A stretch of 64,000 bases of DNA from assembly GCA_963508915.1 (NCBI GenBank), contig CAUOZE010000007.1, forward strand, positions 55 through 64,054, given 5' to 3'. This document shows positions 37,901 through 60,040 of the stretch, in pieces (position 1 is the first letter of the stretch; every line of letters starts with the position of its first letter). This DNA is from an uncultured Deefgea sp. (lineage in GTDB: Bacteria; Pseudomonadota; Gammaproteobacteria; Burkholderiales; Chitinibacteraceae). The notes beneath the pieces were generated by a model, which had not been told where the DNA came from, searched no databases, and worked only from the letters and a program-made list of their open reading frames with translations. Position numbers and translations under genes: made by a program.

Positions 37901-37913
37901 AAGGAGTAACACA

Positions 37914-41360: not shown

Positions 41361-42959
41361 ATGCCCGTGAACACCTCTATTCAAGACCTTGAAAACCGCC
41401 TCTGGTCCGCTGCTGACCAACTTTGGGCGATGACCGACCTCAAGCCTTCCGAATTTTCAACGCCTGTTTTGGGGCTGCTGTTTTTGCGTTATGCCGAAAC
41501 CAAATTTGCCGCCGCCGAAGCGCGCTTTGCTGAGGACGGCCTGAGCGCTGCTGAACTCGATAAAACAGATTTTCAAGCCGATGGTGTGCTGTACCTCACG
41601 GGCATTGCGCGCTTTAGTTATTTGGTGAATTTACCCGAAGCCGAAAATCTCGGTTTGGCCGTTAATATGGCAATGGCAGCGGTCGAGCTAGAGAACGAAG
41701 AATTACGTGGCGTGCTGCCGCGCAGCTACACGCGCCTGGATAATGGCGTGATTCAAGAGCTATTGCGCTTGCTTGCGCCGATTAAGATTGAAGGCGATGC
41801 GTTTGGTCGCGTTTACGAGTATTTCCTCGGCAACTTCGCGATGAAGGAAGGCCAAAAGGGCGGCGTGTTTTACACCCCGACCAGTATCGTTAAACTAATT
41901 GTCGAAATCCTCCAGCCCTACCACGGGCGCATTTACGACCCCGCTTGCGGTTCGGGCGGTATGTTTGTGCAAAGCGCGGAATTTGTGAATCAACATAACA
42001 AACGCGCCGCCGATGAACTCACGGTATTTGGCACCGAGAAATCCGCCGATACCGTCAAACTCGGCAAAATGAATTTGGCCGTGCATGGCTTGTCGGGCGA
42101 CATTCGCGTTGCCAATAGTTTTTTTGAAGACCCGCACGAATCGCTGGGCAAGTTTGACTTTGTCATGGCCAATCCGCCGTTCAACGTCAGCGGCGTGGAT
42201 AAAGACCGTATCAAGGGCGACCCGCGCCTGCCGTTTGGCTTGCCAAGCACCGACAACGCCAATTACCTGTGGATTCAATACTTCTACAGCACGCTGAACG
42301 ACACGGGCCGCGCCGGTTTCGTCATGGCCAATTCAGCAGGCGACGCGCGCGGTAGTGAGCTGGAAATCCGCAAGCAAATGCTGCAAAACGGTGTGGTCGA
42401 TGCCGTCGTCAGTATCGGCTCTAACTTCTTCTACACCGTCACGCTGCCGTGTACTTTGTGGTTCTTTGATAAGGCCAAGCGCAGCCTTCCCCCTCTCCCC
42501 ACGGCGGGAGAGGGTCGGGGTGAGGGGCGCGTGCGCGGCAAAGAGACCGTGCTGTTCATCGACGCGCGCCACCTGTACCGCCAAGTGAGCCGTTCTGTGC
42601 GCGACTTCACGCCAACGCAAACCGAATTTCTTGCCAACATTGCCCGCCTGTATCGCGGCGAAGCGGTTGAAAACCTGCATGATAGTGCGGAACTCATTGC
42701 GCAGCATTTCCCCGCAGGCGTCTACGCTGACGCGGCAGGGCTATGCAAAGTGGCAACGCTGGCCGACATCGAAGCGCAAGGCTGGAGCTTGAATCCTGGG
42801 CGTTATGTCGGCGTGGCCGATGCTGCGGCGGATGATTTTGTGTTTGCTGAACGGCTGGAAGAGCTGAGCGAAGGATTGGTTGTGTTGAACGATGAGGCTC
42901 GTCAGTTGGAGTCGCTCATCGCGCAAAATATAGCGCTAATTTTGGATGGTGTAGCATGA
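41361..42959 (+). CDS. hsdM: Type I R-M methyltransferase subunit
   Basis: [22 protein letters not shown]. Confidence 0.97.
42485..42527. repeat. Palindromic REP-like element inserted in frame in hsdM
   Basis: CCCTCTCCC-CACGGC-GGGAGAGGG-TCGGGGTGAGGGG, encoding [14 protein letters not shown]. Confidence 0.75.
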
Positions 42960-44194
42960 GTGCGCGTCAAAAATTTAAGCTTGATGAGTTAGGTACTGTT
43001 GGTAGAGGTAAGTCTAAACATCGGCCTCGTAATGACCCCAGCCTTTATGGTGGCCCATATCCATTTTTTCAAACTGGCGACGTAAAGGCTGCTGAGCTTT
43101 ATTTGCGTGAATATTCGCAAACGTATAGCGATGCTGGATTGGCACAAAGCAAATTGTGGCAGCCAGGTACGCTTTGTATCACTATTGCCGCTAATGTCGC
43201 TGATACAGCAATTTTGGCAATTCCTGGTTGCTTCCCTGATAGCGTCGTTGGGTTTATCGCAAATCCTGAAAAAGCTGATGCTCGATTTATTAAATACTAT
43301 ATCGACGTTATTAAGCGGCAGATGGTTAGCGCCTCAAAAGGCACTACGCAAGATAATTTGAGCGTAGATAAGTTACTGATGTTTGATTTTGAAGTTCCGC
43401 TGGTCTGCGAGCAAACGCATATTGCAGATATTATTTCCGCCTATGACGACCTGATTGAGAACAACACGCGGCGGATTGCGGTGTTGGAGGAAATGGCGCG
43501 GCGGATTTATGAAGAATGGTTCGTCCACTTCCGCTACCCCGGCCACGAGCAAGCCCAAAAAGTAGAAACCGAGCTAGGCTTGGTGCCGGAAGGGTGGGAG
43601 GTTAAGCAGCTTGGCGAATGTTCCGTTTATGTGAATCGGGGCATTACCCCTAAGTATGACGATGCTGCTGAGGGCTTGGTTATCAATCAAAAATGCATTC
43701 GAAATGGCAAGCTAAGTATGGCTTTTGCAAGAAGACAGTCGAAAGTACCTCCAAGCGATAAAGTGGTGCGTTATGGTGATGTATTAATTAATTCAACAGG
43801 TGTTGGTACTCTTGGACGTGTTACTCAAATTTGTGAAAATTTGAATAATGTCACGGTAGATACGCATGTCAGTATTGTTCGTCCGAGGCCTGAGCTAGAT
43901 GTAGAGTTTTTTGGATTGGCACTGCTTCGGCTGGAGCCGCACTTTGAGCAACAAGGAGTCGGAGCAACTGGTCAAACAGAGTTGAGCCGCGCCCGTATTG
44001 CGGAAACTCCGATGCTCATTCCGCCGTTTGAATTGCAGGTGCAGTTTTCGAATATGGTTTCTGCAATGCGTAAGCAGCCACTAATTCTATCCAAGAAAAA
44101 CGCTAACCTCCGCCAAACCCGCGACCTACTCTTGCCGCGCCTGATTTCGGGCGAGCTGGACGTTTCTAAGCTGGTGCTGCCGGATGTGGCTTGA
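42956..44194 (+). CDS. hsdS: Type I R-M specificity subunit
   Basis: Two TRDs with conserved [17 protein letters not shown] and [17 protein letters not shown]; ATGA overlap with hsdM. Confidence 0.96.
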
Positions 44195-44346
44195 TGGGTA
44201 TGTGGTGCTGAGTGATGGTGGTAATGGGTTGTGAGTATATACCCGTTATGACTGTTTTGCACCCTGTCGCACGCCCCGTGGCTGCGCAAGCCCACCAACT
44301 TCGCCTACGAATGCTCTGTGCGTTGCAGAGTGAACGAAGCCGAAGC

Positions 44347-44452
44347 ATGCGCGCGTTTGCCGAGTCATGGCCGCAAGAGGCAATTGTCCAGCAGGCTGTT
44401 GGACAATAATCGTGGGTGCGAAAGTTGAAAGAACCGCAGTGGCGGATGAGGG
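44347..44452 (+). pseudogene. Remnant of a DUF1016/YhcG-family gene
   Basis: MRAFAESWPQEAIVQQAVGQ* then SW..KLKEP resembles the DUF1016 MRAFAEAWP..IVQQ...QLPW motif; in-frame TAA and deletions. Confidence 0.65.
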
Positions 44453-44456
44453 CGTA

Positions 44457-44906
44457 ATGTCGAATGTGGTGTTGGAATGTGGTCAGTGCGGTAAGGCCAA
44501 TAAGGTGGAAACCCAGTTTCAGATTAGCTGTGGGTGTTGCAAAGCACCGCTGGATACGCAGGCGTTTCGCCCTTATGCCGATTATTTTGAGCAACAAAAG
44601 CCCGCTAAAAAAAGCGGTGTGAGCAAAACGACGATGTTTGTGGTGGCGACGGTGACGGCGGTGAGTGGCTTTTTTTCGGCTGAATATGTGTCGCAGCGCG
44701 CGGCGGTTTCTCCGACCGAATACCGCTTCTTGGAGGCATGTATTTTGGGCTCTGAGCCAACAAACCATGCACGTTATCAGCGCAAAGTGGCCATTTGTAC
44801 TTGTGCATTTAATCAAACGCGCGACAGCCTTGCGGCCAAGCCTGAGCTAGATTTCGTAGCGACGTTTGAGCAGACTGTTACCGCGTGCGCAGGCGCGGTG
44901 CAATAA
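44457..44906 (+). CDS. Zn-ribbon + single TM + Cys-containing C-terminal domain protein
   Basis: CGQC...CGCC, TM MFVVATVTAVSGFF, C-terminal EAC/CTC/C. Confidence 0.7.
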   Translation: MSNVVLECGQCGKANKVETQFQISCGCCKAPLDTQAFRPYADYFEQQKPAKKSGVSKTTMFVVATVTAVSGFFSAEYVSQRAAVSPTEYRFLEACILGSEPTNHARYQRKVAICTCAFNQTRDSLAAKPELDFVATFEQTVTACAGAVQ

Positions 44907-44927
44907 CCCCAGGGGTTAAGCCTGGGG
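44907..44927. terminator. GC-rich hairpin between convergent genes
   Basis: CCCCAGG-GGTTAAG-CCTGGGG; no clear U-tract. Confidence 0.4.
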
Positions 44928-44933
44928 CTGCGA

Positions 44934-45074
44934 TTACTTGGCTTGCGTGTCGCCGGAGTCTAGGCGCTCTTCGTAATCATCTGGCCGCTCATCCAAACCG
45001 CGCGACTCCCAATAGGCGTCGTTATTTGGATTGAGCTGGTTGCTATGATTGTCGTTGTCGTCTTTTTTGCTCAT
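44934..45074 (-). CDS. Small acidic protein (46 aa)
   Basis: Manual translation MSKKDDNDNHSNQLNPNNDAYWESRGLDERPDDYEERLDSGDTQAK*. Confidence 0.7.
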   Translation of the reverse strand: MSKKDDNDNHSNQLNPNNDAYWESRGLDERPDDYEERLDSGDTQAK

Positions 45075-45086
45075 GGGCCAGGCTTC

Positions 45087-45194
45087 TTATTTAGTTTTCG
45101 GTGGGTTGTTATCACGGCCACCGCCTGATGGCTCTCCTGTTTTGCTCGGCCAATTGGGCTGGTTTGATGCGGTCAATGTTTGAGTTGTGTTCAT
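45087..45194 (-). CDS. Small Gly/Pro/Asn-rich peptide (35 aa)
   Basis: Manual translation MNTTQTLTASNQPNWPSKTGEPSGGGRDNNPPKTK*; GGAG RBS 7 nt upstream. Confidence 0.6.
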   Translation of the reverse strand: MNTTQTLTASNQPNWPSKTGEPSGGGRDNNPPKTK

Positions 45195-45216
45195 GGTGAG
45201 GCTCCATTTGAGTTGA

Positions 45217-45642
45217 ATGCTGGATAAGGCTTACCCAGTGATGGAGATAATACGGAGTGGTACTGTGACAGTACGTGACAGCGAGCAGGTGATTTCCCAT
45301 TGGCCGCAATTAAGCGTCATCATTGATGAATGCGGCGGTGCGGCGGCTTTTTTGCGTGGCATCGAAGGCGATGCGCTGGATGAGTTGCTGGACAAAAGAT
45401 ATGGCTGCGCAGACGGTGATGACATGCGCATTGAAAAGCTCAATGAGAGCTTAAGGCAGTGCTTGAGCCGCTATAAACGTGGCAAGAATTTACAGGGTAA
45501 TTCGCTGGATTTAGGGCGGCAATTATTGGAAATCTGGCTGAAGAAATATCCTAGTGCAATACGTTATACCGAACATGAAGAGCTTCGGCAGATGCGAGCT
45601 ATTTCACATGAGCTTGAACGGCTGCTTGCTGGCAATGCCTAG
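45217..45642 (+). CDS. Hypothetical protein (141 aa)
   Basis: ORF between the micro-ORFs and hsdR; no motif recognised. Confidence 0.6.
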   Translation: MLDKAYPVMEIIRSGTVTVRDSEQVISHWPQLSVIIDECGGAAAFLRGIEGDALDELLDKRYGCADGDDMRIEKLNESLRQCLSRYKRGKNLQGNSLDLGRQLLEIWLKKYPSAIRYTEHEELRQMRAISHELERLLAGNA

Positions 45643-45827
45643 CGCGTTGATTGCTAGCTTGTAAGATTGATGCGACTTGGGTAGTCTTTCGTCTATGTTC
45701 AGTTAAAAAATAAGATAATTCAGCAAAAATTAGTTTTCATTAGCTGACTATTTATCCTATTCGCTGGGCGAATTGAATGGTAAGTCTTTGATAAGACTGC
45801 TATTTGTATTGGATAAAAGGACCGTCA

Positions 45828-48800
45828 GTGCCCTATAACATCGAAAAACCAACCCCACATTCCGCGCGTGACGTGTCGGCTGGCTATGGCGAGCTGAATT
45901 TAGTTGAAGCGCCTGCCATTGAATTACTTAAAAATTTGGGCTGGCAGCATGCGGATTTGTTCAAAGAAAAAATAGGGCGTTTGGGCACTGAAGGGCGCGA
46001 GAGCGAAAGCCAAGTCATTTTGCCGAACCGCTTGCGGGCGGCATTGCAGCGGCTCAATCCTGGCTTGTCGCCATTGGCGTATGAGCTGGCGTTTGACGTG
46101 TTAAATACCGACCGTTCCCGTGAGTCGGCGGTGGTGGCGAATCAAGCGATTTATGCCTTGCTGCGCGACGGCGTCAAAGTCACCGTTCCCGACGCCGATG
46201 GTATGCCGAGCTTTGAAACGCTGGTGCTGGTGGACTGGAAAAATCCCGAGAACAATGAATATTTTCTGGCGACTCAACTTTGGGTGGCGGGGGATATGTA
46301 TCGCCGTCGCTGCGATGGTGTCGGCTATATCAATGGCTTGCCGCTGGTGTTCTTAGAATTTAAAGCGCCTGGTGTACATTTAAAAGCTGCCTTTGACGAA
46401 AACCTGCGCGATTACCGGGGGCAAAGCATCCCGCAATTGTTTCACTTCAATGCGTTTATCTTGTTATCCAATGGCCGAGAAACTAAGGTCGGTACGCTCA
46501 CGTCAATGTGGGAACACTTTGCCGAATGGAAGCGGATTTCGACCGAAGAAGAGCCCGCTAAGGTGTCGCTAGAAACCGCACTGCGTGGGATGTTGCTGCC
46601 TGAGCGTTTACTCGACCTGATTGAAAACTACACTCTGTTTGAACTGGTTCGTGGTGGGCTGGTGAAGAAGGTCGCTAAAAACCATCAATTCCTTGGTGTG
46701 AATAAAGCCATCGAGGAAGTGGGCAAGCTGAACGAGAACCAAGGGAAGTTGGGCGTGTTCTGGCATACCCAAGGCAGTGGCAAGAGTTTGTCGATGGTGT
46801 TCTTTACACAGAAAATCTTGCGCAAGCGTCCTGGCGCGTGGACTTTTGTGATTGTGACGGACCGCGAAGAACTTGATACGCAAATCTATAAAACCTTTGC
46901 CAATACGGGTAGTGTGGGCGCTGAGGTTCAAGCCACTAGCGCGGCGCACCTTAAAGAGTTGTTGGCAGGTAATCAGCGCTATGTGTTCACGCTGATTCAA
47001 AAATTCCGCAGTGAGGACGGTGCAGAATATCCGCTGTTGTCGAATCGTTCCGACATCATTGTGATTACCGACGAAGCGCATCGTAGCGAGTACGGCACGT
47101 TTGCAATGAATATGCGCAAGGCGCTGCCGAATGCGGCGTTTATTGGTTTTACCGGAACGCCATTGATTGCGGGCGAAGACGAAAAAACTCGCGCCGTGTT
47201 TGGTGATTATGTTTCGGTCTATAACTTCGCCCAGGCTATTCAAGACGGTGCAACGGTGCCGCTGTATTACGAGAATCGTATCCCCGCTTTGCAACTGACT
47301 AACGAAGATTTGAATGCCGACTTGGCGAGTATTTTGGAAAATGCCGACCTCGACGAGGACCAAGAGCAAAAACTAGAGCGCGAATTTGGCCGTCAATATC
47401 ACCTGATAACTCGTAACGACCGACTTGAAACCATCGCCGCTGACATCGTTGAGCATTTCACGGGTCGTGGGTATCGCGGCAAAGCGATGATGGTGTGCAT
47501 CGACAAGGCAACCGCCATTCGCATGTACGACAAGGTGCAAGCACATTGGCAAGCGACGCTGACACGCCTAAATGCCGAGCTAAAGTCGAGTACGGGTGAA
47601 CATGCCGAGGCTATACAGGCCCGTATCACCTTGATGCTCGATACCGATATGGCCGTGGTGGTGTCGCAAGGCCAAAACGAAGTGGCCGACCTGAAAGAGA
47701 AAGGCCTGGATATTGAGCCGCATCGCCGTCGCATGATGCAGGGTGATTTGGAAGAAGAATTCAAAAGCCCGACGACCAAGCTAAAACTGGTGTTTGTTTG
47801 CGCGATGTGGATTACGGGCTTTGACGTGCCGACTTGCTCGACGCTGTATCTGGATAAGCCGATGAAGGCGCATACCTTGATGCAGGCCATCGCCCGCGCT
47901 AATCGGGTGTCTGAAGGCAAAACCAGCGGCATGATTGTCGATTACGTCGGGATTTTCCGTCACCTCAAAGACGCGCTTTCTATTTATGCCAATTCAGGCG
48001 CGGGCGGTGCGGGTTGTGATGATTCGGGCGATGATTCAGGAAATGTCCCGCTAGAGGCGAAACAACAGCTTATTAGCTTGCTTGAGCAGTCCATTACCGA
48101 CGCGGAAATGTGGTGCCAAACTCAGCAAATTAGTATCACCGACATCATTGCTGCCGAAGGATTTCACCGTGTTGGCTTAATGATGGACGCGGTCGATGCC
48201 ATCGTCGCCAGTGATGATACTAAAGCGCAGTTTATGGCGCTGGCGGGCTTTGTGGCTAAACACTACAAGGCCATTTTGCCCGATACCCGCGCTGCGGATT
48301 ACGCGCCCAAAACGGTTGCGCTGGCGTTCTTGGCACGGCAAGTCAAAGCGCTGATGCCACCCGTCGATATTAGCGAGGTGATGAATGATATTGAGGCCTT
48401 GCTCGATGATTCTATTGCCACCGATGGGTATCACATTTCCGCCAGTGGTATGGCCAAAGCTTTGGTTGATTTGTCGGAAATTGACTTTGAAGCGCTGGAT
48501 GCCGAGTTTAAAAAGAGCAAGCGTAAACACGTTACAGCCGAACAGTTGAAGGGCGCGGTCGAGCAAAAAGTGAACGAGCTGGCGGCGAAAAATCCAAGTC
48601 GTGAAGGCTTGGTCGAAAAGCTGAAAAAACTGATTGATGCGTACAACGCTGGCGATATCAACATCGAAACGTATGTCGAGGAACTCAAGCAATTTACTAA
48701 AGAGTTGAAAGCGGAAGGGTTGCGTGGTGAATCGCTAGGGCTTAGCGAAGAAGAGTTGGCCGTGTTCGACATTTTGACTCAGCCCGACCCGCCACTCACG

Positions 48801-49025
48801 CCTGAACAAGAGCAAGAAGTACGCCGCGTAGCGAAAACGCTATTGACCAAGTTGAAAGCAGAAAGGCTGATTTTGGATTGGCGTTTAAAACAACAAGCCC
48901 GTGCTGCAGTGCAGAAAACCATCAGAGATATTTTTAGAACATTGCCACAACCCTATAACCCCGACCTGCGCCAGGAAAAAGCGGCTAGGGCTTATAGCTT
49001 TGTTTATGACAATTTGGCGGGGTAA
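45828..49025 (+). CDS. hsdR: Type I R-M restriction subunit
   Basis: FLEFKA nuclease motif, WHTQGSGKS, DEAHRS, GFTGTP, MWITGFD, QAIARANR; start uncertain (GTG 45828). Confidence 0.97.
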   Translation: MPYNIEKPTPHSARDVSAGYGELNLVEAPAIELLKNLGWQHADLFKEKIGRLGTEGRESESQVILPNRLRAALQRLNPGLSPLAYELAFDVLNTDRSRESAVVANQAIYALLRDGVKVTVPDADGMPSFETLVLVDWKNPENNEYFLATQLWVAGDMYRRRCDGVGYINGLPLVFLEFKAPGVHLKAAFDENLRDYRGQSIPQLFHFNAFILLSNGRETKVGTLTSMWEHFAEWKRISTEEEPAKVSLETALRGMLLPERLLDLIENYTLFELVRGGLVKKVAKNHQFLGVNKAIEEVGKLNENQGKLGVFWHTQGSGKSLSMVFFTQKILRKRPGAWTFVIVTDREELDTQIYKTFANTGSVGAEVQATSAAHLKELLAGNQRYVFTLIQKFRSEDGAEYPLLSNRSDIIVITDEAHRSEYGTFAMNMRKALPNAAFIGFTGTPLIAGEDEKTRAVFGDYVSVYNFAQAIQDGATVPLYYENRIPALQLTNEDLNADLASILENADLDEDQEQKLEREFGRQYHLITRNDRLETIAADIVEHFTGRGYRGKAMMVCIDKATAIRMYDKVQAHWQATLTRLNAELKSSTGEHAEAIQARITLMLDTDMAVVVSQGQNEVADLKEKGLDIEPHRRRMMQGDLEEEFKSPTTKLKLVFVCAMWITGFDVPTCSTLYLDKPMKAHTLMQAIARANRVSEGKTSGMIVDYVGIFRHLKDALSIYANSGAGGAGCDDSGDDSGNVPLEAKQQLISLLEQSITDAEMWCQTQQISITDIIAAEGFHRVGLMMDAVDAIVASDDTKAQFMALAGFVAKHYKAILPDTRAADYAPKTVALAFLARQVKALMPPVDISEVMNDIEALLDDSIATDGYHISASGMAKALVDLSEIDFEALDAEFKKSKRKHVTAEQLKGAVEQKVNELAAKNPSREGLVEKLKKLIDAYNAGDINIETYVEELKQFTKELKAEGLRGESLGLSEEELAVFDILTQPDPPLTPEQEQEVRRVAKTLLTKLKAERLILDWRLKQQARAAVQKTIRDIFRTLPQPYNPDLRQEKAARAYSFVYDNLAG

Positions 49026-49120: not shown

Positions 49121-52100
49121 TTGAGTAAGGCGCTGAGTATGGCTGATATGTTGATTAAACATTTAAATGAAAAAGGCAGTGCCCATTCGGGACTATCCTT
49201 GTTGGTAAATCAATGGGGGTTTGATGAAAAACTAATTCCCAAAGCGTTACAAACAATAGGCGGCCTTTTTCCTCATTACAGCAGGCATGATGAGTCCCAT
49301 AGTAAACAGATTTTAATTAATATTGAGCGCCTGCTCGGTGAGAATATAAAGCTGCTCACGGCTACAGATACTTGGCTTTTGCTTGAGGCTGCGTATTGGC
49401 ATGATATTGGTATGGTTGTTCCTCAGGAAGATATTGCCAATACGTTAAAATTAGCTGAATTTCAACAATATCTTGATTCAATTTGTAATACGCCGAACCA
49501 TGAGTTAGAGCGTTGTGCTAGAAATTTACGTACGAGAAATGATAGCAACAGTTTTTTTGATGCACGTTCACCGCTAGAAGCTGTTGGGCAGTTTGGACAG
49601 CTAATGGCTGAGTGGTTTCGCAGACAGCATGCAGGACGAGCAGCAAAAACAATTCAATCTCCTTGGGATAGTGCTGGAATTAGTTCTCCCCGCACAGAGC
49701 TGATACCTGCTCGACTCTTTAAATTGCTTGGACGAATTTGCCAAATGCACGGTTCACCATTTGAGGAGTTGTTGGCTCCGAATGGTTTACCTTTCCGAGA
49801 GGCGGGTTTAGCACAGGAGGATTGCCACCCCCGATTTATTGCTTGTCTGCTGCGTATGGGGGATTTATTGGATTTGGATGACAATCGTTTTTGCCCTGTT
49901 ATGCAGCGCATCGCGGGTGAAAACCGCCCCAAACTCAGTAAGGCGCATGAAGATAAGCATGCAGGGCTTCGGCATTTGCGAATAGACCGTGAACGAATTG
50001 AAATCAGCGCAGAGTGCGAAACGATTGATGGATATTTAGAAACCTTCAAATGGTTTGATTGGCTTAAGCAAGAAGTTCAAAATCAAATGGTGAACTGGCA
50101 AGATATCGTCCCAAGCCGGGATTTAGGGCTTTTGCCTACACTGGGTTCGTTAAAGGTTCGATTAAGTGGTGAGTTACAAATATTAAAAGAAGGGCAGCGC
50201 CCGCAGTTTGGAGTTGATGGCGTAAAAGCTATTGAGCTGTTGCAAGGAAATAATCTGTACAGCACGAAATTTTCCTGCATTCGTGAGTTATTGCAAAACG
50301 CGGTCGATGCTACTTTGCTACGGCTGTGGTTGAGTAAGAGTAAACGTAAAAGTGACACCGCTGAGGTTTGGGATAGTCCGTTGGCTGAAGGAGCTAGAGT
50401 TGCTCTTGATTCGGCATTGGTAGAAGTTAGCCTGACTGAAACCCCTGAGCCTAACGAGGATATGACTGATAAGTCTACTTGGACTTTAACAATTACTGAC
50501 GAAGGGACCGGTATTAGTCGGGAAGATTTGGCATACATGCTGCAAATTGGCGGCTCACATCGTAATCAGCAAAGGCAAGCTAAAATTAGCGCAATGCCGG
50601 AATGGATGAAGCCATCAGGTACTTTTGGTATTGGTTTGCAAAGTGTGTTCTTGTTGTGCAATGAAATAACACTAACGACTAAAAGTATATTTAGTAATGA
50701 AATATTGCAAATAACAATGCATAGCCCTACAGGGCCACATGAAGGTTTGGTGCTGTTAAAAATACTTGAGAATGACATCGGACGTTCTTTTGGCACCGAA
50801 ATTAAAGCTAAATTTCAACTAGATGCTTTTGCCAAATCATGGACTATATCGTTAGGTGGCAATATTTCTTTGGCCGAAAAATTCGTAAATGCAATGGACC
50901 CTCTTGATGCTTCATTCCCCTATGAAGCGGCTAAAATTGCGGATGAGTTCATTGCATTTTCTGCAAATTCACCCATTAAAATCGTACCCAAGTTAATAAC
51001 TTCTAATGGAAAACAACATATTGATGTTACTGCTAAGGTGCCGATTAGTAATGTTTCAAATCAATGGCGTTTTGTGAATGTTAATAGTCATGCGTTGGCA
51101 CTTCGGTACACTCCCGTTGTTTATGGTCGTTCAAATTGGAGTCTGAGTTTGCTTTATCGTGGTCAACCATTTGAATTTAAAAACAAGGTTTATTCTCACC
51201 TTCAACTGGAGGTTGACTTAATGTCAGGGAAGGCCGGCCATTGGTTGATTGCTAATCGCGAAAAGTTGGCGGGCAGTGCCGAGGGTGAATTGAACAAACT
51301 AATCCTGGCTGCACTTGAGCAGCAGGTGAGGAGTGATATTGCAGCTCCCGAAGATATTGAGATGCTTCATGAGAATAATCGACCAACGTATTCTTTTTTT
51401 CTTGAAGTGATGGCATTGAGTCATCAAGGTGGCTGGAAGGAGTTAGCCCAACTTTTCGATAAAGAATGGTTAGCTTTACCTTGTCGCTCAAAGATATATC
51501 CCACATTCCATGACGCATTTTTGGCACACTCTTGGACTCTAGGAGAGGCACCATCCCGTGGTGAACCTGAAGTTCTTGGATGTGATGTTTTAGTGGATAG
51601 CCCTAGTTGGGATGCTACCCTGCATATTGTTCTGAATGAGTGGTTAAAAGATGACCGCAGAACGGTGCAAGTGCAAGTACCTGAACTACGCGAAGAATCT
51701 GCTGTTGGTTGCTCAGAGGGGGACATACCTACGACATATTTAGAAGATGCAGTTAAATATCGTGTTCGTTATCTACTTAAAAAAGAGAAACAAGAGGCCT
51801 ATACGAACGACGCGTTAGCTACTCGGTTGGCTGCGGTTGCACGTCAAACATCTGGTAATTCTCGTTACTTATTAAATGTAGATGATATTAGGTGGAATAA
51901 ACTATGGTTGAAAGATGATGCTCAGGTGATGGCTCAAAGATTGTTTGATGTGACACCGCGAAATGCAAAATTTATTTTATTACCTTTTCTCTTTCGTGGT
52001 TTGGTTAGAGGAGTGGGGGTTTCGAGTGAAGCAACTTCAGAGCAATTGGATGCCTTATGCAAATGGATTCAGCCTAATTTGGTTTCTACAGTTACGCTAG

Positions 52101-52210
52101 AAGAAATTAGAGAGACTTACAAAAAGCTCATTGAGTATCTTGATGTTGATGTCATGGGCCCGTCGATACATAGTGCAAGATGGCGAACCTCACGAGGTCT
52201 TAGTGATTAA
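49121..52210 (+). CDS. HD-phosphohydrolase / GHKL (Hsp90-like) ATPase fusion protein
   Basis: HYSRHDESHS, AAYWHDIG, QHAGR, MHG, RMGDLLD (HD); IRELLQNAVDA, DEGTG, GTFGIGLQS (GHKL). Confidence 0.85.
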   Translation: MSKALSMADMLIKHLNEKGSAHSGLSLLVNQWGFDEKLIPKALQTIGGLFPHYSRHDESHSKQILINIERLLGENIKLLTATDTWLLLEAAYWHDIGMVVPQEDIANTLKLAEFQQYLDSICNTPNHELERCARNLRTRNDSNSFFDARSPLEAVGQFGQLMAEWFRRQHAGRAAKTIQSPWDSAGISSPRTELIPARLFKLLGRICQMHGSPFEELLAPNGLPFREAGLAQEDCHPRFIACLLRMGDLLDLDDNRFCPVMQRIAGENRPKLSKAHEDKHAGLRHLRIDRERIEISAECETIDGYLETFKWFDWLKQEVQNQMVNWQDIVPSRDLGLLPTLGSLKVRLSGELQILKEGQRPQFGVDGVKAIELLQGNNLYSTKFSCIRELLQNAVDATLLRLWLSKSKRKSDTAEVWDSPLAEGARVALDSALVEVSLTETPEPNEDMTDKSTWTLTITDEGTGISREDLAYMLQIGGSHRNQQRQAKISAMPEWMKPSGTFGIGLQSVFLLCNEITLTTKSIFSNEILQITMHSPTGPHEGLVLLKILENDIGRSFGTEIKAKFQLDAFAKSWTISLGGNISLAEKFVNAMDPLDASFPYEAAKIADEFIAFSANSPIKIVPKLITSNGKQHIDVTAKVPISNVSNQWRFVNVNSHALALRYTPVVYGRSNWSLSLLYRGQPFEFKNKVYSHLQLEVDLMSGKAGHWLIANREKLAGSAEGELNKLILAALEQQVRSDIAAPEDIEMLHENNRPTYSFFLEVMALSHQGGWKELAQLFDKEWLALPCRSKIYPTFHDAFLAHSWTLGEAPSRGEPEVLGCDVLVDSPSWDATLHIVLNEWLKDDRRTVQVQVPELREESAVGCSEGDIPTTYLEDAVKYRVRYLLKKEKQEAYTNDALATRLAAVARQTSGNSRYLLNVDDIRWNKLWLKDDAQVMAQRLFDVTPRNAKFILLPFLFRGLVRGVGVSSEATSEQLDALCKWIQPNLVSTVTLEEIRETYKKLIEYLDVDVMGPSIHSARWRTSRGLSD

Positions 52211-52461: not shown

Positions 52462-53061
52462 ATGCTAGCGGATTTATTACTTGGGCAGTATCGCAGACGG
52501 GTGCTGGCACTACTGCTGCTACACCCCGACAACGCATGGCATGTGCGCGAAATAGCGCGGTTGACGCAAACGCAAGCGGGTACACTCAACCGTGAACTGG
52601 CCAAATTGGCCGACGCTGGTGTGCTACTGGTGAGCAAGGTCGGTAATCAAAAGCATTACCGCGCTAATACTGATTGCCCCGTATTTTCTGAACTGGCGGG
52701 CTTGCTGCGCAAAACGGCGGGAGTGGCCGATGTGCTGACTGCGGCTTTGGCCGAGTTGGCTGAGCGAATTGATGTTGCCTTGGTCTTTGGCTCGGTTGCG
52801 CGCGGTGAAGAGCGTGCGGGTAGTGACATCGACGTGCTGGTGCTGGGTGAGGTTAATTTTGCCGAAGTGGTGGCGGCGTTATATCCACTGCAAGAGCAGC
52901 TTGGTCGAGAAATTAATCCCGCCGTATATAGCGTGGCTGAATTTGCCGACAAAACTGTACAGCAACAAGCATGGGCGATGGACGTATTAAAACAGCCGAA
53001 GTTATTTTTGATAGGTAATGAGCATGACCTTGGAAAACTTGCTGGCAAGTCAAAAAGCTGA
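52462..53061 (+). CDS. HTH + minimal nucleotidyltransferase (MNT-type antitoxin)
   Basis: N-terminal wHTH (WHVREIARLT...LNRELAKL); FGSVARG..SDIDVLV pol-beta motif. Confidence 0.88.
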   Translation: MLADLLLGQYRRRVLALLLLHPDNAWHVREIARLTQTQAGTLNRELAKLADAGVLLVSKVGNQKHYRANTDCPVFSELAGLLRKTAGVADVLTAALAELAERIDVALVFGSVARGEERAGSDIDVLVLGEVNFAEVVAALYPLQEQLGREINPAVYSVAEFADKTVQQQAWAMDVLKQPKLFLIGNEHDLGKLAGKSKS

Positions 53062-53186: not shown

Positions 53187-53942
53187 TCAGGCTAAGTCAT
53201 GAATAGTGCGACCAAGACTCAAGAAATAATTCTCAGTTACTCCGCGAGATGTTGAATGATTAACTATGAAAAAGTTCGTTGCTGGCGTTGGGCTCAATAG
53301 GACTGTTAATTGACAGTCAGGGTCAGGAGTTTCCTCTGTCCATATACTTTCCTGCCCAGTTACGGCTTGAACTATGCTTTTCCATGAGGGTAAATAAGTT
53401 CTCCCATAAAAAACAACATTTCTTGGGCGGTAGTTACGAATTTTCGTCGCTAATGTGTTTATTCGCTGAGGCTCAAGTTGGTTGCGATAAGCTCTGCGAT
53501 TTTGCAGCATAGTGTATTGGTGTTCTTCGGCCCAGGGAGTATATATCCAGCTAGTAATTCTTCTTGAAGCCAGAGGCATCAATTCAAGAAGACAGTGATT
53601 GGAGTTTGGTGTGCCAAACATGTTTGCTTGAAAGTCTCGTATCGCTTCAATATCAGCTCTTTTGTATCTTTGATACCCAAGGAGTATTCTGATTAGTCCT
53701 CTCCACGTAGGCTGAGTTGGGGGTCTCGCTCTATCAAAGTATTTGGACTTATCAATTACACGATGATACGTGACTAAATCAATGACGTCGCCAGCGCCCA
53801 GTCTTTGCCAGGCCTCTATTCGGGCTTGTGCTTCAGCTAAATCTTTGCCACCGCCTTCCTCCATGCCAATAAACCAAATTGGGGCTTTTAAATTGCCATA
53901 CCCGAAAAAATTATGAAGAAATCTGTCTATTAGCTCATGCAT
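53187..53942 (-). CDS. Uracil-DNA-glycosylase-superfamily-like protein
   Basis: GYGNLKAPIWFIGMEEGG resembles UDG motif A; FIVNHSTS resembles motif B; start set at MHELID. Confidence 0.6.
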   Translation of the reverse strand: MHELIDRFLHNFFGYGNLKAPIWFIGMEEGGGKDLAEAQARIEAWQRLGAGDVIDLVTYHRVIDKSKYFDRARPPTQPTWRGLIRILLGYQRYKRADIEAIRDFQANMFGTPNSNHCLLELMPLASRRITSWIYTPWAEEHQYTMLQNRRAYRNQLEPQRINTLATKIRNYRPRNVVFYGRTYLPSWKSIVQAVTGQESIWTEETPDPDCQLTVLLSPTPATNFFIVNHSTSRGVTENYFLSLGRTIHDLA

Positions 53943-54129
53943 ATACTCTCCATTGGAGTGACAAAAGTGTTTTTTATTGGCCGACTGTGAACTGTCACTA
54001 AGTTTATCTGCGGCGCATATTACGTGCATTAATCTCTGGCTAGGTAGTGTGGAATTGTTTGCTCATATTTGATTTGCAAAAGCGAGTTGCAGTAATTGTC
54101 GCGGCAAACCTTTCTGACTTCGTCATACA

Positions 54130-55587
54130 ATGAATTATTCACCAACGTATGATATTGATTCATTTATTGGCAGGCGAGCTATGGAAACACAAGTCTATTT
54201 TTCAGGTATTCGCAAAGAAATCATCCAGCGTTTGGACAAGGCAACAGAGCGGGTTTTGGTCGCGGTGGCGTGGCTTACCGACAAGTCGCTTTTTGATGCG
54301 CTAGTTTCGTGCCAGCGCCGTGGGGTGGTCGTTTCACTTGCGGTGCTAGACGATACAATTAACCGTCAATCCTCCATTGCTTGGGAGCGCCTAACTGCCT
54401 TGGGCGGTAATCTATACTGGATACCCGAAGGAACAGACCATCATGGCTCTTTGCATCACAAGTTCTGCCTGATTGATACGCATACCGTGATGAATGGCAG
54501 CTTTAACTGGACCTACCGCGCCAGCCGTGCCGATGAAAATATGACGGTGTTTGAAGGCGACGCAGCAATAGCTCTTCGTTTCCAGCAAGAATTTGTCCGG
54601 TTACTCAGCAAATATGGCCATGGCCCCGCGCCAGTGGTTATCGATTCCGCCAAGCTCATGGCGCGGCTATCAATTATTGCTAGCTTATTAGAATTGGCCG
54701 AATTTGACGAAATTCCCCAGCACATCAACAAAATTGCCAACGCCCAAGGGCAGACTGACATTGATAGTTTAATGCAATACGTTCAGCAACAAGACTGGCA
54801 AGCGGCGCAAGAAGTTGTGCGTTGCATTTTGTCTCGGGGTACGGCTGTTACGCTTTATCTTGACCCACTCGCAGAGGCGTTGAATTGGCAAATTCGCCTT
54901 CTGGAAATGGAGATTATTGCGCTAGAAACATCGCTAGGTGAAATGCTGCGGCAAATCCACTTGTTTGATTACCAGCAGAACCAAGCTATTGGTGATTTAA
55001 CGCGTGAATATCTAGAGGTTCGTTGGCGTTACTTGGCCCAGTTACATCAAAGAAAACAGCAGCAAAAAACATATGAGGACGCTGAGGCAGCCAAAAAAAC
55101 CTTCCATGATTATCAGCAAGCGCAATCCGAGCTTGCGCACGAAGCCCAGCCCATTGCACTTGATGCAGAGCAGCAAGCGGAGCTAAAACAGCTCTACCGA
55201 AAACTGGCTATGCAGAGCCACCCAGATAGGGTGGCTGCACATCTGCAAGAGCAGGCCAAGGTCTTATTTCAGCAATTACAGGCAGCCTATCAAAATAACG
55301 ATTTAGCGGCATTGCAGCGCATCAAGCTACAAATTGAACAAGGCCTTGCCCCAGTAGAACAGGTGGCCTTATCCATTGAGCGGCTAGAGCTGCGTATGAC
55401 TGAACTGCAAAGTGTTCAAGCGCAACTTGCCCAACAAATTGGAGCGCTGAGTCAGACCTTGGTTTGGCAAACGCTAAGCACGCACACGGATTGGGCGGTA
55501 TGGTTTGCCGAGCAAGCTGAGCGACTGAGAACAGAAATCGCAAATTATCGAGCACAGCTTGAAGAGCTTGAGGCGATGCCGATATGA
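54130..55587 (+). CDS. PLD-family (single HKD) nuclease domain + coiled coil + J-domain-like protein
   Basis: VAVAWLTD, HHKFCLID..NGSFNWT..ADEN; LKQLYRKLAMQSHPDRV...AKVLFQQLQAAY; alternative start ATG 54181. Confidence 0.85.
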   Translation: MNYSPTYDIDSFIGRRAMETQVYFSGIRKEIIQRLDKATERVLVAVAWLTDKSLFDALVSCQRRGVVVSLAVLDDTINRQSSIAWERLTALGGNLYWIPEGTDHHGSLHHKFCLIDTHTVMNGSFNWTYRASRADENMTVFEGDAAIALRFQQEFVRLLSKYGHGPAPVVIDSAKLMARLSIIASLLELAEFDEIPQHINKIANAQGQTDIDSLMQYVQQQDWQAAQEVVRCILSRGTAVTLYLDPLAEALNWQIRLLEMEIIALETSLGEMLRQIHLFDYQQNQAIGDLTREYLEVRWRYLAQLHQRKQQQKTYEDAEAAKKTFHDYQQAQSELAHEAQPIALDAEQQAELKQLYRKLAMQSHPDRVAAHLQEQAKVLFQQLQAAYQNNDLAALQRIKLQIEQGLAPVEQVALSIERLELRMTELQSVQAQLAQQIGALSQTLVWQTLSTHTDWAVWFAEQAERLRTEIANYRAQLEELEAMPI

Positions 55588-58244
55588 ATCTCGTCCCTAT
55601 TGGTGCGCAACTACCTACGGCTCTCACAAGGCGTTGCGATATTGTGGCGAGCACACTCGCTACCGTTGAGCAGCAAGAAATCATGCAGTTTTTTCGTGAT
55701 TTCCCTGAGTTGTTTTATTACTGCGTGCAACGGCACTATCCACTAACGGAAGAGCAAGTAACTCGCTATCCAGACTTTTGGGATTGGTCTCTATTGAGTA
55801 AAAATAGAGACTTGATGCGGTCTTATGATTTGGTTGAGCAGCATGCTGGAAAATTAAACTTGGGCTGGTTGAGTTGGAATGGGCTTTTGCCATGGTCAGG
55901 TGATTTGATTGAGCGTTATGCTGGCCAGTGGGATTGGAGGGCGCTAAGTTGGAATGGGGAGTTGCCATGGTCGGATGACTTGATTGAGCGTTATGTTTGC
56001 CAGTGGGATTGGAGGGCGCTAAGTAGGAATGGGGCGTTACCATGGTCGGATGACTTGATTGAGCGTTATGTTTGCCAGTGGGATTGGAGGGCGCTAAGTG
56101 GGAATGAGGCATTGCCATGGTCGGTTGATTTGCTAGGGCGTTATGTTGACCGCTGGGATTGGGGTTACTTAAGTAGAAATACAGCTTTACCATGGTCGAG
56201 TGATTTGGTTGAATGTTACGCTCTTCGATGGAATTGGGAGGAGTTAAGCTTCAATCACGCATTGCCTTGGTCAATTGAAATGATTGAACATTTCTCCGCC
56301 CAATGGGATTGGGAAAATTTGAGTTTGAACCACTCCTTGCTTTGGTCGTGTGAGTTGCTTGAACGTTTTGCCGACCAATGGGATTGGATAACGATAAGCT
56401 TTAATCGCGCAGCGCCTTGGACGCTTGAGTTAACGAAGCGTTATGCGAACACGTCGAATTGGCAAGGGCGGGGCGTAAATGGTTTCCTTCCATGGTCGCC
56501 TGATTTGATTGAGCGCTATGCTGACCGATATGATTGGGAAACACTGAGTTGGCATGTTATTTTACCGTGGTCGATTGATTTAATTGAATATTATTCTGAC
56601 CGATGGGATTGGGGTTCGTTGAGTTGGAATGATGGCGTGATTTGGTCGTATGAATTAATAGAGCGCTTTTCTGACCGATGGGCTTGGCCGATTCTAAGTC
56701 AATGCCATTCTTTGCCTTGGTCGAATGAATTGATTGAGCGTTATGCCCAGCGATGGAGATGGTTGGACCTGAGTTTAAATAGTCGTTTGCCTTGGTCTAG
56801 GGCCTTGTACCGAAAATTTAGCATGAAATTTGATACTTTAGCGGTCTCGACAATTGAAGACTTTGGTATCCAGTCTTTGCTGCCCCAGCAAATCAACCAG
56901 CTATTAACTGAAAACTTAGGGCGTCAATCAAAATTCAAACCTGAAAATAATAAACCCCTCGTGCATGACCAGGTGATGGATTCGGAATTTGAATGTAGCA
57001 AGACGGCTGATGTGACGGCGCAAAATTTAAGCGCAGAATACTACTCGAAAAAAAACTTAGTTAGCGCTGACCGCGCCAATGAAATTAGTGCACAGCTAAA
57101 CAATACGAACAGCGGTATCGACCTTGAAATGATGCAGGATGGGATTGTTTTAGCTGGCTATCACATCGAAAAAGGGGCGCGTACATTTGCCGCTTATGCC
57201 GAGGCAATGATTGGCGATTTAGGCGAGGCAGTAAAACCATATCTTAAATCATGGTATATGAGTGTGAAGTACGACCCTCGCGCTGCTGGCATAGAAGGCT
57301 TGAGCAGCGCCGCCGAGGTGGAAGCCGCTGATATTGATGCCTTAGCAACTCCCGAAGACCACGAAGCAGAGCTGGCAAACGACACTTTAGATGACGTGCA
57401 CGCGGATAGCACTGATGATGTGAAGGCAAGTAGTGCGGCTCTGGGGCAAGTAAAGATTGATCTTGTAAATGCACTTTACCACCGTGATAACATTTTTTTG
57501 CATGAGCGAAAGGCTAATATCTCCCCTGAACTGAGTGACCTCGAGCAGCGCTATGAAACCACCAAAGGCAAATTTGAGCTAGATACGAAGGGGGTTCGTA
57601 ACGCTTCAGAACTTCTCCCCGCACTCTCAAAAGTAATTGGCTTGCTGATGGAACAAGGCTTGCGAAGCTTTGCCGAGGTAGTTCAAACAACTTATTCATT
57701 GCTAGTTCGTAACGGGCTTGACACAAATTTACTGGCACAAGTGAGCGACCAGCGATGGGCCGCGGCCTACAACGGGGTTGCTGAGGATTACCAAGGTACG
57801 GAAGGTCTGGATGATGTGTGGAAACAAAGTGCAAAGGCAATTATTAAATCAATGCAGTCGGTCGTGCCAGGTGCTAGCTCTTATTTAACGTCCGAACAAG
57901 AGAAAGCCATTATGCCAATTTTGGTGCGCGTGTTAGATGTTGCTTTCCGTCTTGGGTATTACAAATTCAAGGATGCAGCAAAATTCATTCTTGATGAGAT
58001 TCGAGGGGCAATTAGCGCAGAAGTGGCCGACGCGATAACACTTGACAATTTGCAAGGTGCATACATTGCAATGTCAACTAGATACGAAAACGCCGACAGT
58101 GCCGAGGAAGTTATTGCGGTCAAAAGCGTCGATGAAATCAACGCGCACACGCTAATTGACCTTCACGCGCCGACCTACGAAGCCCACGAATCAGAGCTGG
58201 CCGACAACCCTGTGGATGATGTTGTGGAAGCGGAAAGCAGATAA
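55584..58244 (+). CDS. Trp-rich 25-aa repeat protein with C-terminal helical modules
   Basis: 14 repeats of consensus WDWxxLSxNxxLPWSxxLIERYxxx; C-terminal GARTFAAYAEAMIGDLGEAVKPYLKSWY; ATGA overlap with the upstream gene. Confidence 0.85.
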   Translation: MNLVPIGAQLPTALTRRCDIVASTLATVEQQEIMQFFRDFPELFYYCVQRHYPLTEEQVTRYPDFWDWSLLSKNRDLMRSYDLVEQHAGKLNLGWLSWNGLLPWSGDLIERYAGQWDWRALSWNGELPWSDDLIERYVCQWDWRALSRNGALPWSDDLIERYVCQWDWRALSGNEALPWSVDLLGRYVDRWDWGYLSRNTALPWSSDLVECYALRWNWEELSFNHALPWSIEMIEHFSAQWDWENLSLNHSLLWSCELLERFADQWDWITISFNRAAPWTLELTKRYANTSNWQGRGVNGFLPWSPDLIERYADRYDWETLSWHVILPWSIDLIEYYSDRWDWGSLSWNDGVIWSYELIERFSDRWAWPILSQCHSLPWSNELIERYAQRWRWLDLSLNSRLPWSRALYRKFSMKFDTLAVSTIEDFGIQSLLPQQINQLLTENLGRQSKFKPENNKPLVHDQVMDSEFECSKTADVTAQNLSAEYYSKKNLVSADRANEISAQLNNTNSGIDLEMMQDGIVLAGYHIEKGARTFAAYAEAMIGDLGEAVKPYLKSWYMSVKYDPRAAGIEGLSSAAEVEAADIDALATPEDHEAELANDTLDDVHADSTDDVKASSAALGQVKIDLVNALYHRDNIFLHERKANISPELSDLEQRYETTKGKFELDTKGVRNASELLPALSKVIGLLMEQGLRSFAEVVQTTYSLLVRNGLDTNLLAQVSDQRWAAAYNGVAEDYQGTEGLDDVWKQSAKAIIKSMQSVVPGASSYLTSEQEKAIMPILVRVLDVAFRLGYYKFKDAAKFILDEIRGAISAEVADAITLDNLQGAYIAMSTRYENADSAEEVIAVKSVDEINAHTLIDLHAPTYEAHESELADNPVDDVVEAESR
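55779..56828 (+). repeat. In-frame 75-bp tandem repeat array (14 units)
   Basis: Period 75 nt (e.g. CCATGGTCGG at 55965 and 56040); units 3-5 nearly identical in DNA. Confidence 0.9.
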
Positions 58245-58310: not shown

Positions 58311-58763
58311 TTAACCGTTCAACACAGGTACAAGCTGGCCGTTTTGCTGCTCGATGACGACCGTTGTTATCGCCAGCGGCTCATCAGGCAATTTGGGGTG
58401 GATTTGTCGGTAACCATTCGTTGGGCAGACCACCAATTGTGCTGGAACGGTTTTGGCTAAATGTTCAATCAGCTCGGCAAATAAATCCGCATGCCCATTT
58501 GGCGTGCGTAGCACGGCGGTACTAGTAATACCCTGCATCGATTCCCCGTTGGGCCCCACCAAAGTGAAATTTTTAGCCACGGGAATCCACTTTGCGGTAA
58601 GAAAATCCGACCTAGCGAGGCAACGCAATATATTGAGTTTTTCTGTATCTGTGCCGTGCAATGCATAGCTCTTGCCTGCTAGGCGTTGGATGTTCCCATC
58701 TTCGTCTGAATAGGCCCAGAGGTTGATAACGACTTCAGCTGTTTTGTGTGATTCACCCAGCAT
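58311..58763 (-). CDS. Hypothetical protein (150 aa)
   Basis: Clean ORF convergent on the repeat gene; no motif recognised. Confidence 0.65.
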   Translation of the reverse strand: MLGESHKTAEVVINLWAYSDEDGNIQRLAGKSYALHGTDTEKLNILRCLARSDFLTAKWIPVAKNFTLVGPNGESMQGITSTAVLRTPNGHADLFAELIEHLAKTVPAQLVVCPTNGYRQIHPKLPDEPLAITTVVIEQQNGQLVPVLNG

Positions 58764-58900: not shown

Positions 58901-59242
58901 TTTTCTTGGGGGCTTGCTGCGCAAAACTACGGCGGGGTGGTCGATGTGTTGACTGCGGCCTTTGCTGGAGTTGGCTGTGCGAATTGATTTTTTATTCAGT
59001 AGCGCACGGTGAAGAGCGTGTTGGCAGCTACATTAACGTGCTGGTGCTGAGAGAAGTGAACTTTGCCGAAGTGATGGCTCTACATCTATTGCACATAGTT
59101 GCCGAATTCGCAGACAAAGCCACTCTGGAACAAGCATGGGCGCTGGAGGTACTAAAATAGACGAAATTGTTTTTGATAGGAGGCGAGCATGACCTTGGAA
59201 AACTTGCGGGCCATTAACAAGCTGATTCGCTCCCCCGTGTAA
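58901..59242 (+). pseudogene. Degenerate second copy of the MNT gene plus partner stub
   Basis: Aligns by eye to ~52683-53040 (GGGCTTGCTGCGCAAAAC, TTTGCCGAAGTG, ACAAGCATGGGCG, GAGCATGACCTTGGAAAACTTGC), with deletions and a CAG>TAG stop. Confidence 0.85.
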
Positions 59243-59889: not shown

Positions 59890-59935
59890 CATGTAGGCAA
59901 AAAATACTGAATTTGCCTACATAGTGCCTACATGA
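59890..59935. repeat. Integrase arm-type binding sites (right)
   Basis: CATGTAGGCAAAA plus AATTTGCCTACATAGTGCCTACATGA, identical to the left-end motifs. Confidence 0.8.
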
Positions 59936-59942
59936 GATTTTG

Positions 59943-60040
59943 GAGCGGAAATGAACAAGGCCCCAACTTTCGTTGAGGCCTTGATTTTACTGGGGTGGCT
60001 GATGGGGCTCGAACCCACGACAACAGGAATCACAATCCTG
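59943..60040. repeat. att site (tRNA-proximal copy)
   Basis: 98-bp repeat of 35999-36096. Confidence 0.95.

Follow-up and report, generated by a model that had tools for sequence, protein, structure and literature searches.

A phospholipase D-J-domain protein encoded with a tryptophan-repeat protein in a Deefgea genomic island: a candidate conflict module whose family also occurs in flagellar clusters

Nucleases of the Nuc, NucT, Zucchini, and BfiI type carry one HKD motif per chain on a phospholipase D (PLD) fold, and specialized J-proteins of the DjlA, CbpA, HscB, and auxilin type place an HPD tripeptide between helices II and III and add a client or location part outside the J-domain. In STAND/NLR-like and TIR-TPR proteins (Avs, bNACHT; Kaur et al. 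2020, PMC7159879), a constant effector is combined with swapped LRR, TPR, or WD40 arrays, and the genes lie in variable, defense-rich regions. Here, we describe two overlapping genes in which features of all three groups meet. They were found in an uncultured Deefgea sp. (Burkholderiales, Chitinibacteraceae; assembly GCA_963508915.1, contig CAUOZE010000007.1, positions 55 to 64,054 of the forward strand), and this whole stretch of 64,000 nt, to which all coordinates refer unless another locus is named, is called the window below. Gene 1 (54181-55587, + strand) codes for a PLD(HKD)-coiled coil-J protein of 468 aa, which has the fold and motif of the Nuc-type nucleases together with the helix II-HPD-helix III arrangement and the non-J part of the specialized J-proteins. 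Gene 2 (55584-58244, + strand) codes for a tryptophan (Trp)-repeat protein of 886 aa. The PLD-J family to which gene 1 belongs has, like the STAND/NLR-like proteins, a constant subunit accompanied by swapped repeat arrays, in defense-rich regions. We propose that the constant PLD-coiled coil-J subunit and the exchangeable repeat subunit work together as a single functional module, whose widespread family has not been described before, and we give an even chance to the reading, drawn from sequence comparison, that the pair of the window serves as sensor and effector in a conflict with phages or mobile elements.

Gene 1 lies in an open reading frame (ORF) that is open from 54130, and its start is most likely at 54181, because the homologs all begin at a METQ equivalent to M18 of the long ORF. 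Its N-terminal part is a single-HKD PLD domain of the Nuc/Zucchini type (residues 19-161 of the long ORF, 54184-54612), on which Pfam, Foldseek, and profile comparison agree. PLDc_2 covers residues 31-158 (E 1.3e-24), and the AlphaFold2 (AF2) model (predicted local distance difference test [pLDDT] 82) superposes on Nuc 1byr (Foldseek TMt 0.79, root mean square deviation 2.7), NucT, Zucchini, and FAM83. The family profile finds the same Nuc structure in the PDB with an E of 5e-15. The full HxK(x)4D(x)6G(S/T)xN motif is present as HHKFCLIDTHTVMNGSFN (residues 109-126 in long-ORF numbering, 54454-54507). Gene 1 is thus a predicted nuclease, whose activity would depend on homodimerization.

The PLD domain is followed by a helical domain (residues 173-236) and a coiled coil of about 90 residues (246-336), which together occupy 54646-55137 according to the secondary structure of the AF2 model. 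This region is probably used for dimerization or partner binding, and the coiled coil could aid the dimerization of gene 1; the helical domain is also kept in the PLD-repeat and J-repeat fusion proteins described below. Next comes the J-domain (55153-55338), with helix II at residues 346-363, helix III at 370-388, and helix IV at 392-403, recognized by Pfam, AF2, and profile comparison. Pfam DnaJ covers residues 348-388 with a marginal score (29.1 bits against a cut-off of 27.8). The family profile matches J-domains in the PDB at E 3e-7 to 1e-4, the J-domain structures of Escherichia coli DnaJ being found at E 4e-5 to 9e-5. In the AF2 model, the HPD (residues 364-366, 55219-55227) stands between helices II and III, and C-terminal helices end the protein. 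We considered whether the C-terminal helix (VWQTLSTHTDWAVWF) is a single Trp-repeat unit that stacks on the solenoid of the partner, and discarded the idea when a hidden Markov model (HMM) of the repeat unit scored real sequences no higher than shuffled ones.

Gene 2 starts within the stop of gene 1, in an ATGA overlap (55584-55587, + strand) that can be read directly from the sequence. Its product, judged from the ORF and the AF2 model, begins with an N-terminal helix, continues as a Trp-repeat solenoid, and passes through a disordered linker into a C-terminal extension that is unique. The N-terminal helix (residues 12-39, 55617-55700; pLDDT >79) is conserved in the N termini of the Trp-repeat partners, which makes it a candidate docking element for gene 1. 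It precedes 14 tandem repeats of 25 aa (residues 66-415, 55779-56828), with a period of 75 nt and the consensus WDWxxLSxNxxLPWSx[DE]LIERYxxx, recovered both by Tandem Repeats Finder and by a second repeat search. Tryptophan makes up 12% of these residues, and the variable positions of the unit are 4, 5, 8, 10, 11, 16, and 24. At 96% DNA identity, units 3 and 4 (55929-56078) stand above the inter-unit median of 61%, which indicates a recent duplication of a unit in the array. Residues 12-445 are modeled with pLDDT >90 as a solenoid with two short helices per unit. The sequence-only reading had described two ORFs overlapping in ATGA, a first protein with a single HKD PLD domain and an HPD J-like module, and a second with 14 repeats of 25 aa with variable positions; all of this was borne out, the domains by Pfam, motif, profile, and AF2, and the array by the two repeat finders and a tally of its positions.

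The model of gene 2 had no match below E 0.2 in the PDB by Foldseek (best E 0.23). In BFVD, where a predicted structure is compared with predicted structures, it resembles the entomopoxvirus 'tryptophan repeat gene family' (E 2.6e-13 and 3.1e-13; best match overall 4.4e-17) and uncharacterized proteins of Marseille-, Pitho-, Orpheo-, and mimiviruses, as well as gp558, gp560, and gp563 of Bacillus phage G (E 4e-17 to 1e-5). At the sequence level, no family was found for gene 2 in Pfam (no enzymatic domain), NCBIfam, or PADLOC, and the single database with a match was PHROGs; the 'Sigma_1s' and 'Zf-C2H2_ZNF451' matches that Pfam gives on Trp-repeat proteins, for which no matched stretch is reported, were taken as repeat artifacts.

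The C-terminal part of gene 2, about 450 aa reached through the disordered linker, sets it apart from the partners found elsewhere, which are 388 to 638 aa long and consist of repeats only. As a whole, this C-terminal half is shared by no other protein among the 5.8 billion searched and is unique to this genome. Within it, residues 506-585 (57099-57338, + strand) form an 80-aa domain that also occurs in giant polyvalent proteins of phages (DarB-like/PLxRFG), found with PHROGs (phrog_10089, E 5e-36; phrog_938, E 1.4e-32) and 63 to 75% identical to modules of Atu_ph08, PBC5, and Skulduggery, where it belongs to virion proteins of 2,000 to 4,900 aa. Thirteen metagenome proteins carry the domain at 50 to 71% identity. 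Pfam has no family for this highly conserved module, which recurs across many giant proteins of phages; in gp21 of Agrobacterium phage Atu_ph08 (4,877 aa; L105, 7177-21810), it lies at about aa 1608-1688, between InPase and PBECR1. The rest of the extension (57339-58244, + strand) is helical in the AF2 model, with low confidence, and no homolog of it was found. Segments 480-625 and 760-886 have similar tails (E 2e-5). An internal triplication of the C-terminal half was considered as well, and it was rejected since the middle segment has no significant similarity and the two tails alone resemble each other.

The association of the two genes was examined in 38 species-representative loci (GTDB) with full-length relatives of gene 1, 3 of which stop at a contig edge. 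A Trp-repeat gene lies directly downstream of the gene 1 homolog in 32 of the 35 loci with room for it, and the 4-nt overlap recurs in L081, L084, L086, L097, L099, L100, and many GTDB loci. In L002, an inserted Tn5-type transposase (10423-11751, - strand) separates the PLD-J gene from the Trp-repeat partner. Both parts are also found in one polypeptide: in P0161, P0181, and P0128, a gene 1-like PLD and helical domain are joined to Trp repeats without the J-domain, and in P0141 the helical domain, coiled coil, and J-domain are joined to Trp repeats without the PLD. The gene 1 homologs of two Thiorhodococcus genomes (L015 and L022) carry three Trp repeats themselves. We are highly confident that the two genes are one functional unit. 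The sequence-only reading had taken the overlap in a single genome as a sign of probable translational coupling; a functional coupling is strongly supported across the family, with its conserved pairing, frequent 4-nt overlap, and fusions.

The gene 1 family comprises at least 182 clusters at 50% identity (exhaustive search, E 1e-30 or better), and two of its members are on IMG/VR contigs (L107 and L108). Among 108 full-length representatives, HPD is present in 107 and a complete HKD in 94, a retention that implies selection for catalysis as far as sequence conservation can indicate it. When 47 diverse members are aligned, H347, P348, and D349 never vary, and the HPD is likewise invariant in a second alignment of homologs; H92, K94, S107, and N109 are each kept in 90% or more of the 47 (468-aa numbering). 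A maximum-likelihood tree of 73 proteins, all of them with HPD, separates HKD-intact and HKD-lost members at a single branch (support 97/84). The tree is unrooted; judged by the majority state in the wider family, the loss of HKD looks derived.

In the more distant members of the family, the partner is usually of another class. A Pfam tally of 31 neighbors gave LRR in 6, TPR in 5, WG repeats in 4, and WD40 in 2, some other neighbors having an FGE-like or vWA-like N-terminal region by eye, and the partners stand either upstream or downstream of the gene 1 homolog. What these partners have in common is a motif of some 30 aa at the N terminus, nsLIPxGsxGLvRVxNSIxITNKIL (the N-motif). An HMM built from the N termini of an LRR-containing partner cluster retrieves the N termini of WG, TPR, and Trp-like partners at E 2e-10 to 1e-2 among 3,492 frames. 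A gene with Trp repeats or with the N-motif is adjacent in 33 of 51 metagenomic or viral loci, many of the others being short contigs. A partner class that is swapped behind a conserved N-terminal motif is the pattern expected of interchangeable sensors, which is how we would read it from these alignments. One partner of 405 aa (L164, 1449-2666), with the shared N-motif and Hsp70/actin-like ATPase motifs by eye, starts 3 nt after its PLD-J gene and would be a dedicated Hsp70-like partner for the J-domain.

The Trp-repeat domain is not confined to this pairing. Elsewhere it is fused to kinases, PIF1-type helicases, ankyrin, Hsp70, HRDC, TIR, PLD, UDG, HNH, DEDDh, DarT, SMI1, and dynamin-like GTPases. 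The Hsp70-Trp-repeat fusion P0094 lies between two dynamin-like GTPases, an arrangement reminiscent of the conflict systems with GTPase and Hsp70 described by Kaur et al. (PMC7159879), and a TIR-Trp-repeat protein adjoins two TIR-TPR proteins.

The genomic setting of the pair follows the state of the HKD motif. The HKD-intact clade, to which the window belongs, is scattered and usually travels as mobile cargo. The pair is accompanied by an integrase, a Gp49-type toxin-antitoxin (TA) pair, vWA, SIR2, and AAA_25 in L099; by an integrase and AAA_25 in L100; by MazEF nearby in L097; and by DUF5677, MNT-HEPN, PIN, and a type III restriction-modification (R-M) system in L084. In L086, it precedes an HNH-DEDDh protein and HicB; in L002 and L005, it stands between Uma2 on one side and DUF2971 and a DEDDh exonuclease on the other; and in L015, its position is immediately behind the conjugative-element genes TraI and TraD.

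If the pair is a conflict module, it may work as follows. The repeat protein would use its N-terminal helix to dock on the PLD-J protein and, once docked, would keep the single-HKD domain from forming a catalytic dimer. Binding of a foreign ligand by the solenoid would lead the HPD of the J-domain to recruit the host DnaK/Hsp70, and ATP-driven remodeling by DnaK would free or rearrange the complex, so that the PLD domains could pair and cut nucleic acid. The host Hsp70 would in this way supply the ATP-driven switch that STAND/NLR-type systems carry themselves. We infer every one of the elements of this scheme, namely the nuclease target, the trigger, the direction of DnaK action, and defense itself.

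Several observations weigh against a conflict role. PADLOC v2 returned for gene 1 generic PLD matches only (DrmC, DpdK, and MkoB; E 4e-8 to 2e-5) and nothing for gene 2. Two HKD-intact loci, L081 (with ggt and a glycosyltransferase) and L104, have no defense neighbors. The N-motif of the LRR, TPR, and WG partners and the N terminus of the gene 2 product (MNLVPIGAQLPTALTRRCDIVASTL) did not find each other in HMM searches in either direction; a likeness can be seen by eye, and hhalign aligns the two in the expected register with an E of 0.11. Gene 2 is atypical as well, with its unique C-terminal half and an inverted third gene behind it (see below), and this copy may have been rearranged or have lost its function. 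An ordinary specialized co-chaperone with its client would likewise account for a J-domain accompanied by a repeat partner. Lastly, the HKD-lost clade, to which 29 of the 38 species loci belong (all from Burkholderiales, mostly from Comamonadaceae), points to a non-defense role for at least that branch, if its gene neighborhood is a guide. A place near defense genes, which the sequence-only reading had named as a check, is seen in several HKD-intact loci, with their TA, SIR2, and R-M genes, but not in L081, L104, or the flagellar surroundings of the HKD-lost clade.

In these flagellar clusters, fliLMNOPQR-flhB is followed by three unknown genes, a divergent sigma-54 activator, a Sel1 protein, the J-protein, the Trp-repeat protein, a second Sel1, and LPP20 (FlgP-like), beyond which come further unknown genes, a hook-length-like gene, flgN, flgM, and flgA. 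Examples are L095 (1-21245) and L096, and also L004-L036. The Sel1-flanked block may encode undescribed flagellar accessory proteins. Since the HKD is dead in the flagellar clusters, the module is not intrinsically a nuclease-based defense; the clade indicates that neither catalysis nor a role in defense is needed for the J-protein/repeat core to work.

The flagellar clade keeps alive a reading without any immune role, in which the J-protein is a specialized co-chaperone or adaptor that brings DnaK to a repeat scaffold for a cellular structure and the PLD is a binding or dimerization module. The placement of 29 of the 38 loci between the sigma-54 activator with Sel1 and the second Sel1, with HKD lost, agrees with it, as do the FlhB and LPP20 (FlgP-like) genes, each present in the fetched flanks of 21 of the 29 HKD-lost loci, and the finding that nothing else in the family is conserved as strongly as HPD. 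FAM83 is a catalytically dead PLD fold, and the PLD part of gene 1 also matches FAM83/SACK1. Against this reading, the complete HKD is kept in the large majority of the representatives at 50% identity given above, the window protein included; the loss is confined to a single split and looks derived, in a tree without a root; and the copy in the window is island cargo with no full-length homolog in the relatives searched. We consider it unlikely for the window pair.

The pair could instead be a TA-like addiction module that stabilizes the island, with the PLD nuclease as toxin and the repeat protein as a chaperone-dependent antidote, and with no phage sensing. Two overlapping genes with the nuclease first, which are repeatedly cargo of integrase islands beside other TA pairs, would suit such a module. 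Partners of 400 to 900 aa made of exchangeable LRR, TPR, WG, and WD40 arrays are, however, unlike antitoxins and typical of ligand sensors, and the fusion of both parts in one polypeptide is contrary to the differential-stability logic of TA systems. Type II TA systems have a small labile antitoxin, and what we found is a partner of 388 to 886 aa of repeats, fused in some genomes. An addiction role is, in our estimation, quite improbable.

The weakest alternative, an offensive role for the mobile element (anti-defense or inter-element competition) in which the phage-like C-terminal domain targets a host or phage component, can draw on the identity of residues 506-585 with the module of DarB-like giant virion proteins (polyvalent proteins being injected early effectors [PMC5512222]), on the place of L015 just after TraI/TraD, and on the two homologs in IMG/VR contigs, but the C-terminal extension occurs in this genome alone, the partners elsewhere being shorter proteins of repeats, and no virion, portal, or transfer gene is adjacent to the pair in the window, so that we hold this role to be very improbable.

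The conflict reading of the window pair takes up the sensor-effector proposal of the sequence-only reading and is partly strengthened. The conserved coupling, the exchange of partner classes, the near-universal HPD, the mobile, defense-rich settings of HKD-intact members, the links to Hsp70 in L164 (by eye) and P0094, and the fusions of the Trp-repeat domain elsewhere to domains such as TIR, HNH, and DarT speak for it; the HKD-dead flagellar clade, the atypical gene 2, and the generic character of the PADLOC matches do not. A broader version of it, possible and in our view doubtful, is that the PLD-J protein with its repeat partner represents a new class of innate-immune switch, in which the host Hsp70 gives the activation step through the J-domain, the N-motif is the handle for DnaK, and one branch, with a dead nuclease, was domesticated in the flagellar clusters of Comamonadaceae. 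As a precedent, the sensing of phage by bNACHT25 is described as mediated by host DnaJ (PMC12169576).

In the window, the pair is carried by a 24-kb island at tRNA-His (35969-60040), bounded by direct repeats of 128 nt (35969-36096 and 59913-60040; 91% identical) that span the 3' part of the tRNA gene. The island contains an integrase (36277-37587), an HTH antitoxin-like ORF (37854-38222), the hsdM, hsdS, and hsdR genes of a type I R-M system (41361-49025), an HD-CE/GHKL protein of 1029 aa (49121-52210; HD-CE, E 1e-56) that starts 96 bp after hsdR, and a PDC-M05A-like nucleotidyltransferase (52462-53061). The type I R-M system, the integrase, and the tRNA-His repeats substantiate the earlier description of a tRNA-integrated island with R-M and other defense-like genes; its TA component is loosely supported, by the HTH antitoxin-like ORF. 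Neither 9 other species of the genus nor 51 further related genomes yielded a full-length homolog of gene 1, and the repeat gene is single-copy in this genome, from which it follows that the pair was acquired together with the island.

The HD-CE/GHKL protein may be a separate defense candidate; its PADLOC match is weak and limited to a region of the DRT UG24 model. Just upstream of hsdM, at 40930-41320, there are two tandem units of about 195 to 200 nt (repeat families D6, D8, D10, and D11; 84 to 100% identical), which could be a duplicated regulatory or origin-like region. A 280-aa ORF (53187-54029, - strand), divergent from gene 1, is not conserved beside the pair in other loci and had no match in Pfam, NCBIfam, PHROGs, or PADLOC, and the same databases gave no family for a 135-aa ORF. 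A scan for promoters and terminators found sites no more numerous than in shuffled sequence.

Convergent with gene 2 lies a 150-aa accessory gene (58311-58763, - strand), for which Pfam, PADLOC, NCBIfam, and PHROGs returned no family. Its homologs in L099 (9284-9754) and L086 (12050-12505) stand directly after gene 2 on the same strand (34% identity, E 2e-21), and it may be a third component, inverted in the window. Behind it, at 58905-59220, we found a decayed nucleotidyltransferase copy that is 78% identical, with deletions, to 52693-53055, the 3' part of the 52462-53061 gene. Since the two copies flank a 5.8-kb segment with the pair, this end of the island has been rearranged, and their position suggests insertion or recombination between related islands.

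If the pair does act in defense, it would be the first system with a nuclease effector tied to the host Hsp70 through its own J-domain, and a function would be given to two orphan features, the Trp-repeat solenoid, widespread in bacteria and giant viruses, and the N-motif of the partners. The hypothesis is directly testable, as HKD and HPD are near-invariant and cleanly mutable and the fusions and the dead-nuclease flagellar clade offer natural controls. Should defense fail, the flagellar clade would still point to an unrecognized J-protein/repeat pair linked to motility genes.

Set against the described systems, the pair keeps the novelty first claimed for it, a pairing unlike the named defense systems: beyond the generic PLD domain nothing matched in PADLOC v2, and literature searches (J-domain with PLD in defense; PLxRFG) gave no description of the pair. 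Compared with the Nuc-type nucleases, gene 1, a nuclease by prediction, adds a coiled coil of about 90 residues and a J-domain and has a repeat-protein partner encoded alongside. To our knowledge, no Nuc-type enzyme is arranged with a coiled coil, a J-domain, and a repeat partner. Compared with the specialized J-proteins, helix I is not evident, there is no Gly/Phe or zinc-finger region, and an enzyme domain is carried instead. DrmC (DISARM), DpdK, and MkoB (Mokosh) show a weak likeness to the PLD domain of gene 1 in PADLOC, but all NCBIfam scores are far under the cut-offs and none of the DISARM, Dpd, or Mokosh partner genes is present in the window.

As for gene 2, its nearest likeness is to the viral 'tryptophan repeat gene family' of entomopoxviruses, giant viruses, and phage G, with a solenoid of Trp units of about 25 aa in the predicted structures; that family consists of multigene families of eukaryotic viruses with neither a solved structure nor an assigned function. 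With the polyvalent proteins (DarB-like/PLxRFG; Iyer et al. 2017, PMC5512222), gene 2 shares the one 80-aa module. It differs from them in having no enzymatic polyvalent domains and in lying outside a phage structural module; these proteins are giant polypeptides with many effector domains, and gene 2 has one small domain in common with them. A further parallel is with the STAND/NLR-like proteins, from which the PLD-J family differs in having no NTPase of its own and a J-domain in its place, and in that the sensor is usually a protein of its own, which the N-motif would link to the effector. Pairing a repeat sensor with a nuclease effector is a known logic; what is new is the coupling through a J-domain, the Trp-repeat solenoid as partner, and the N-motif that the partners share.

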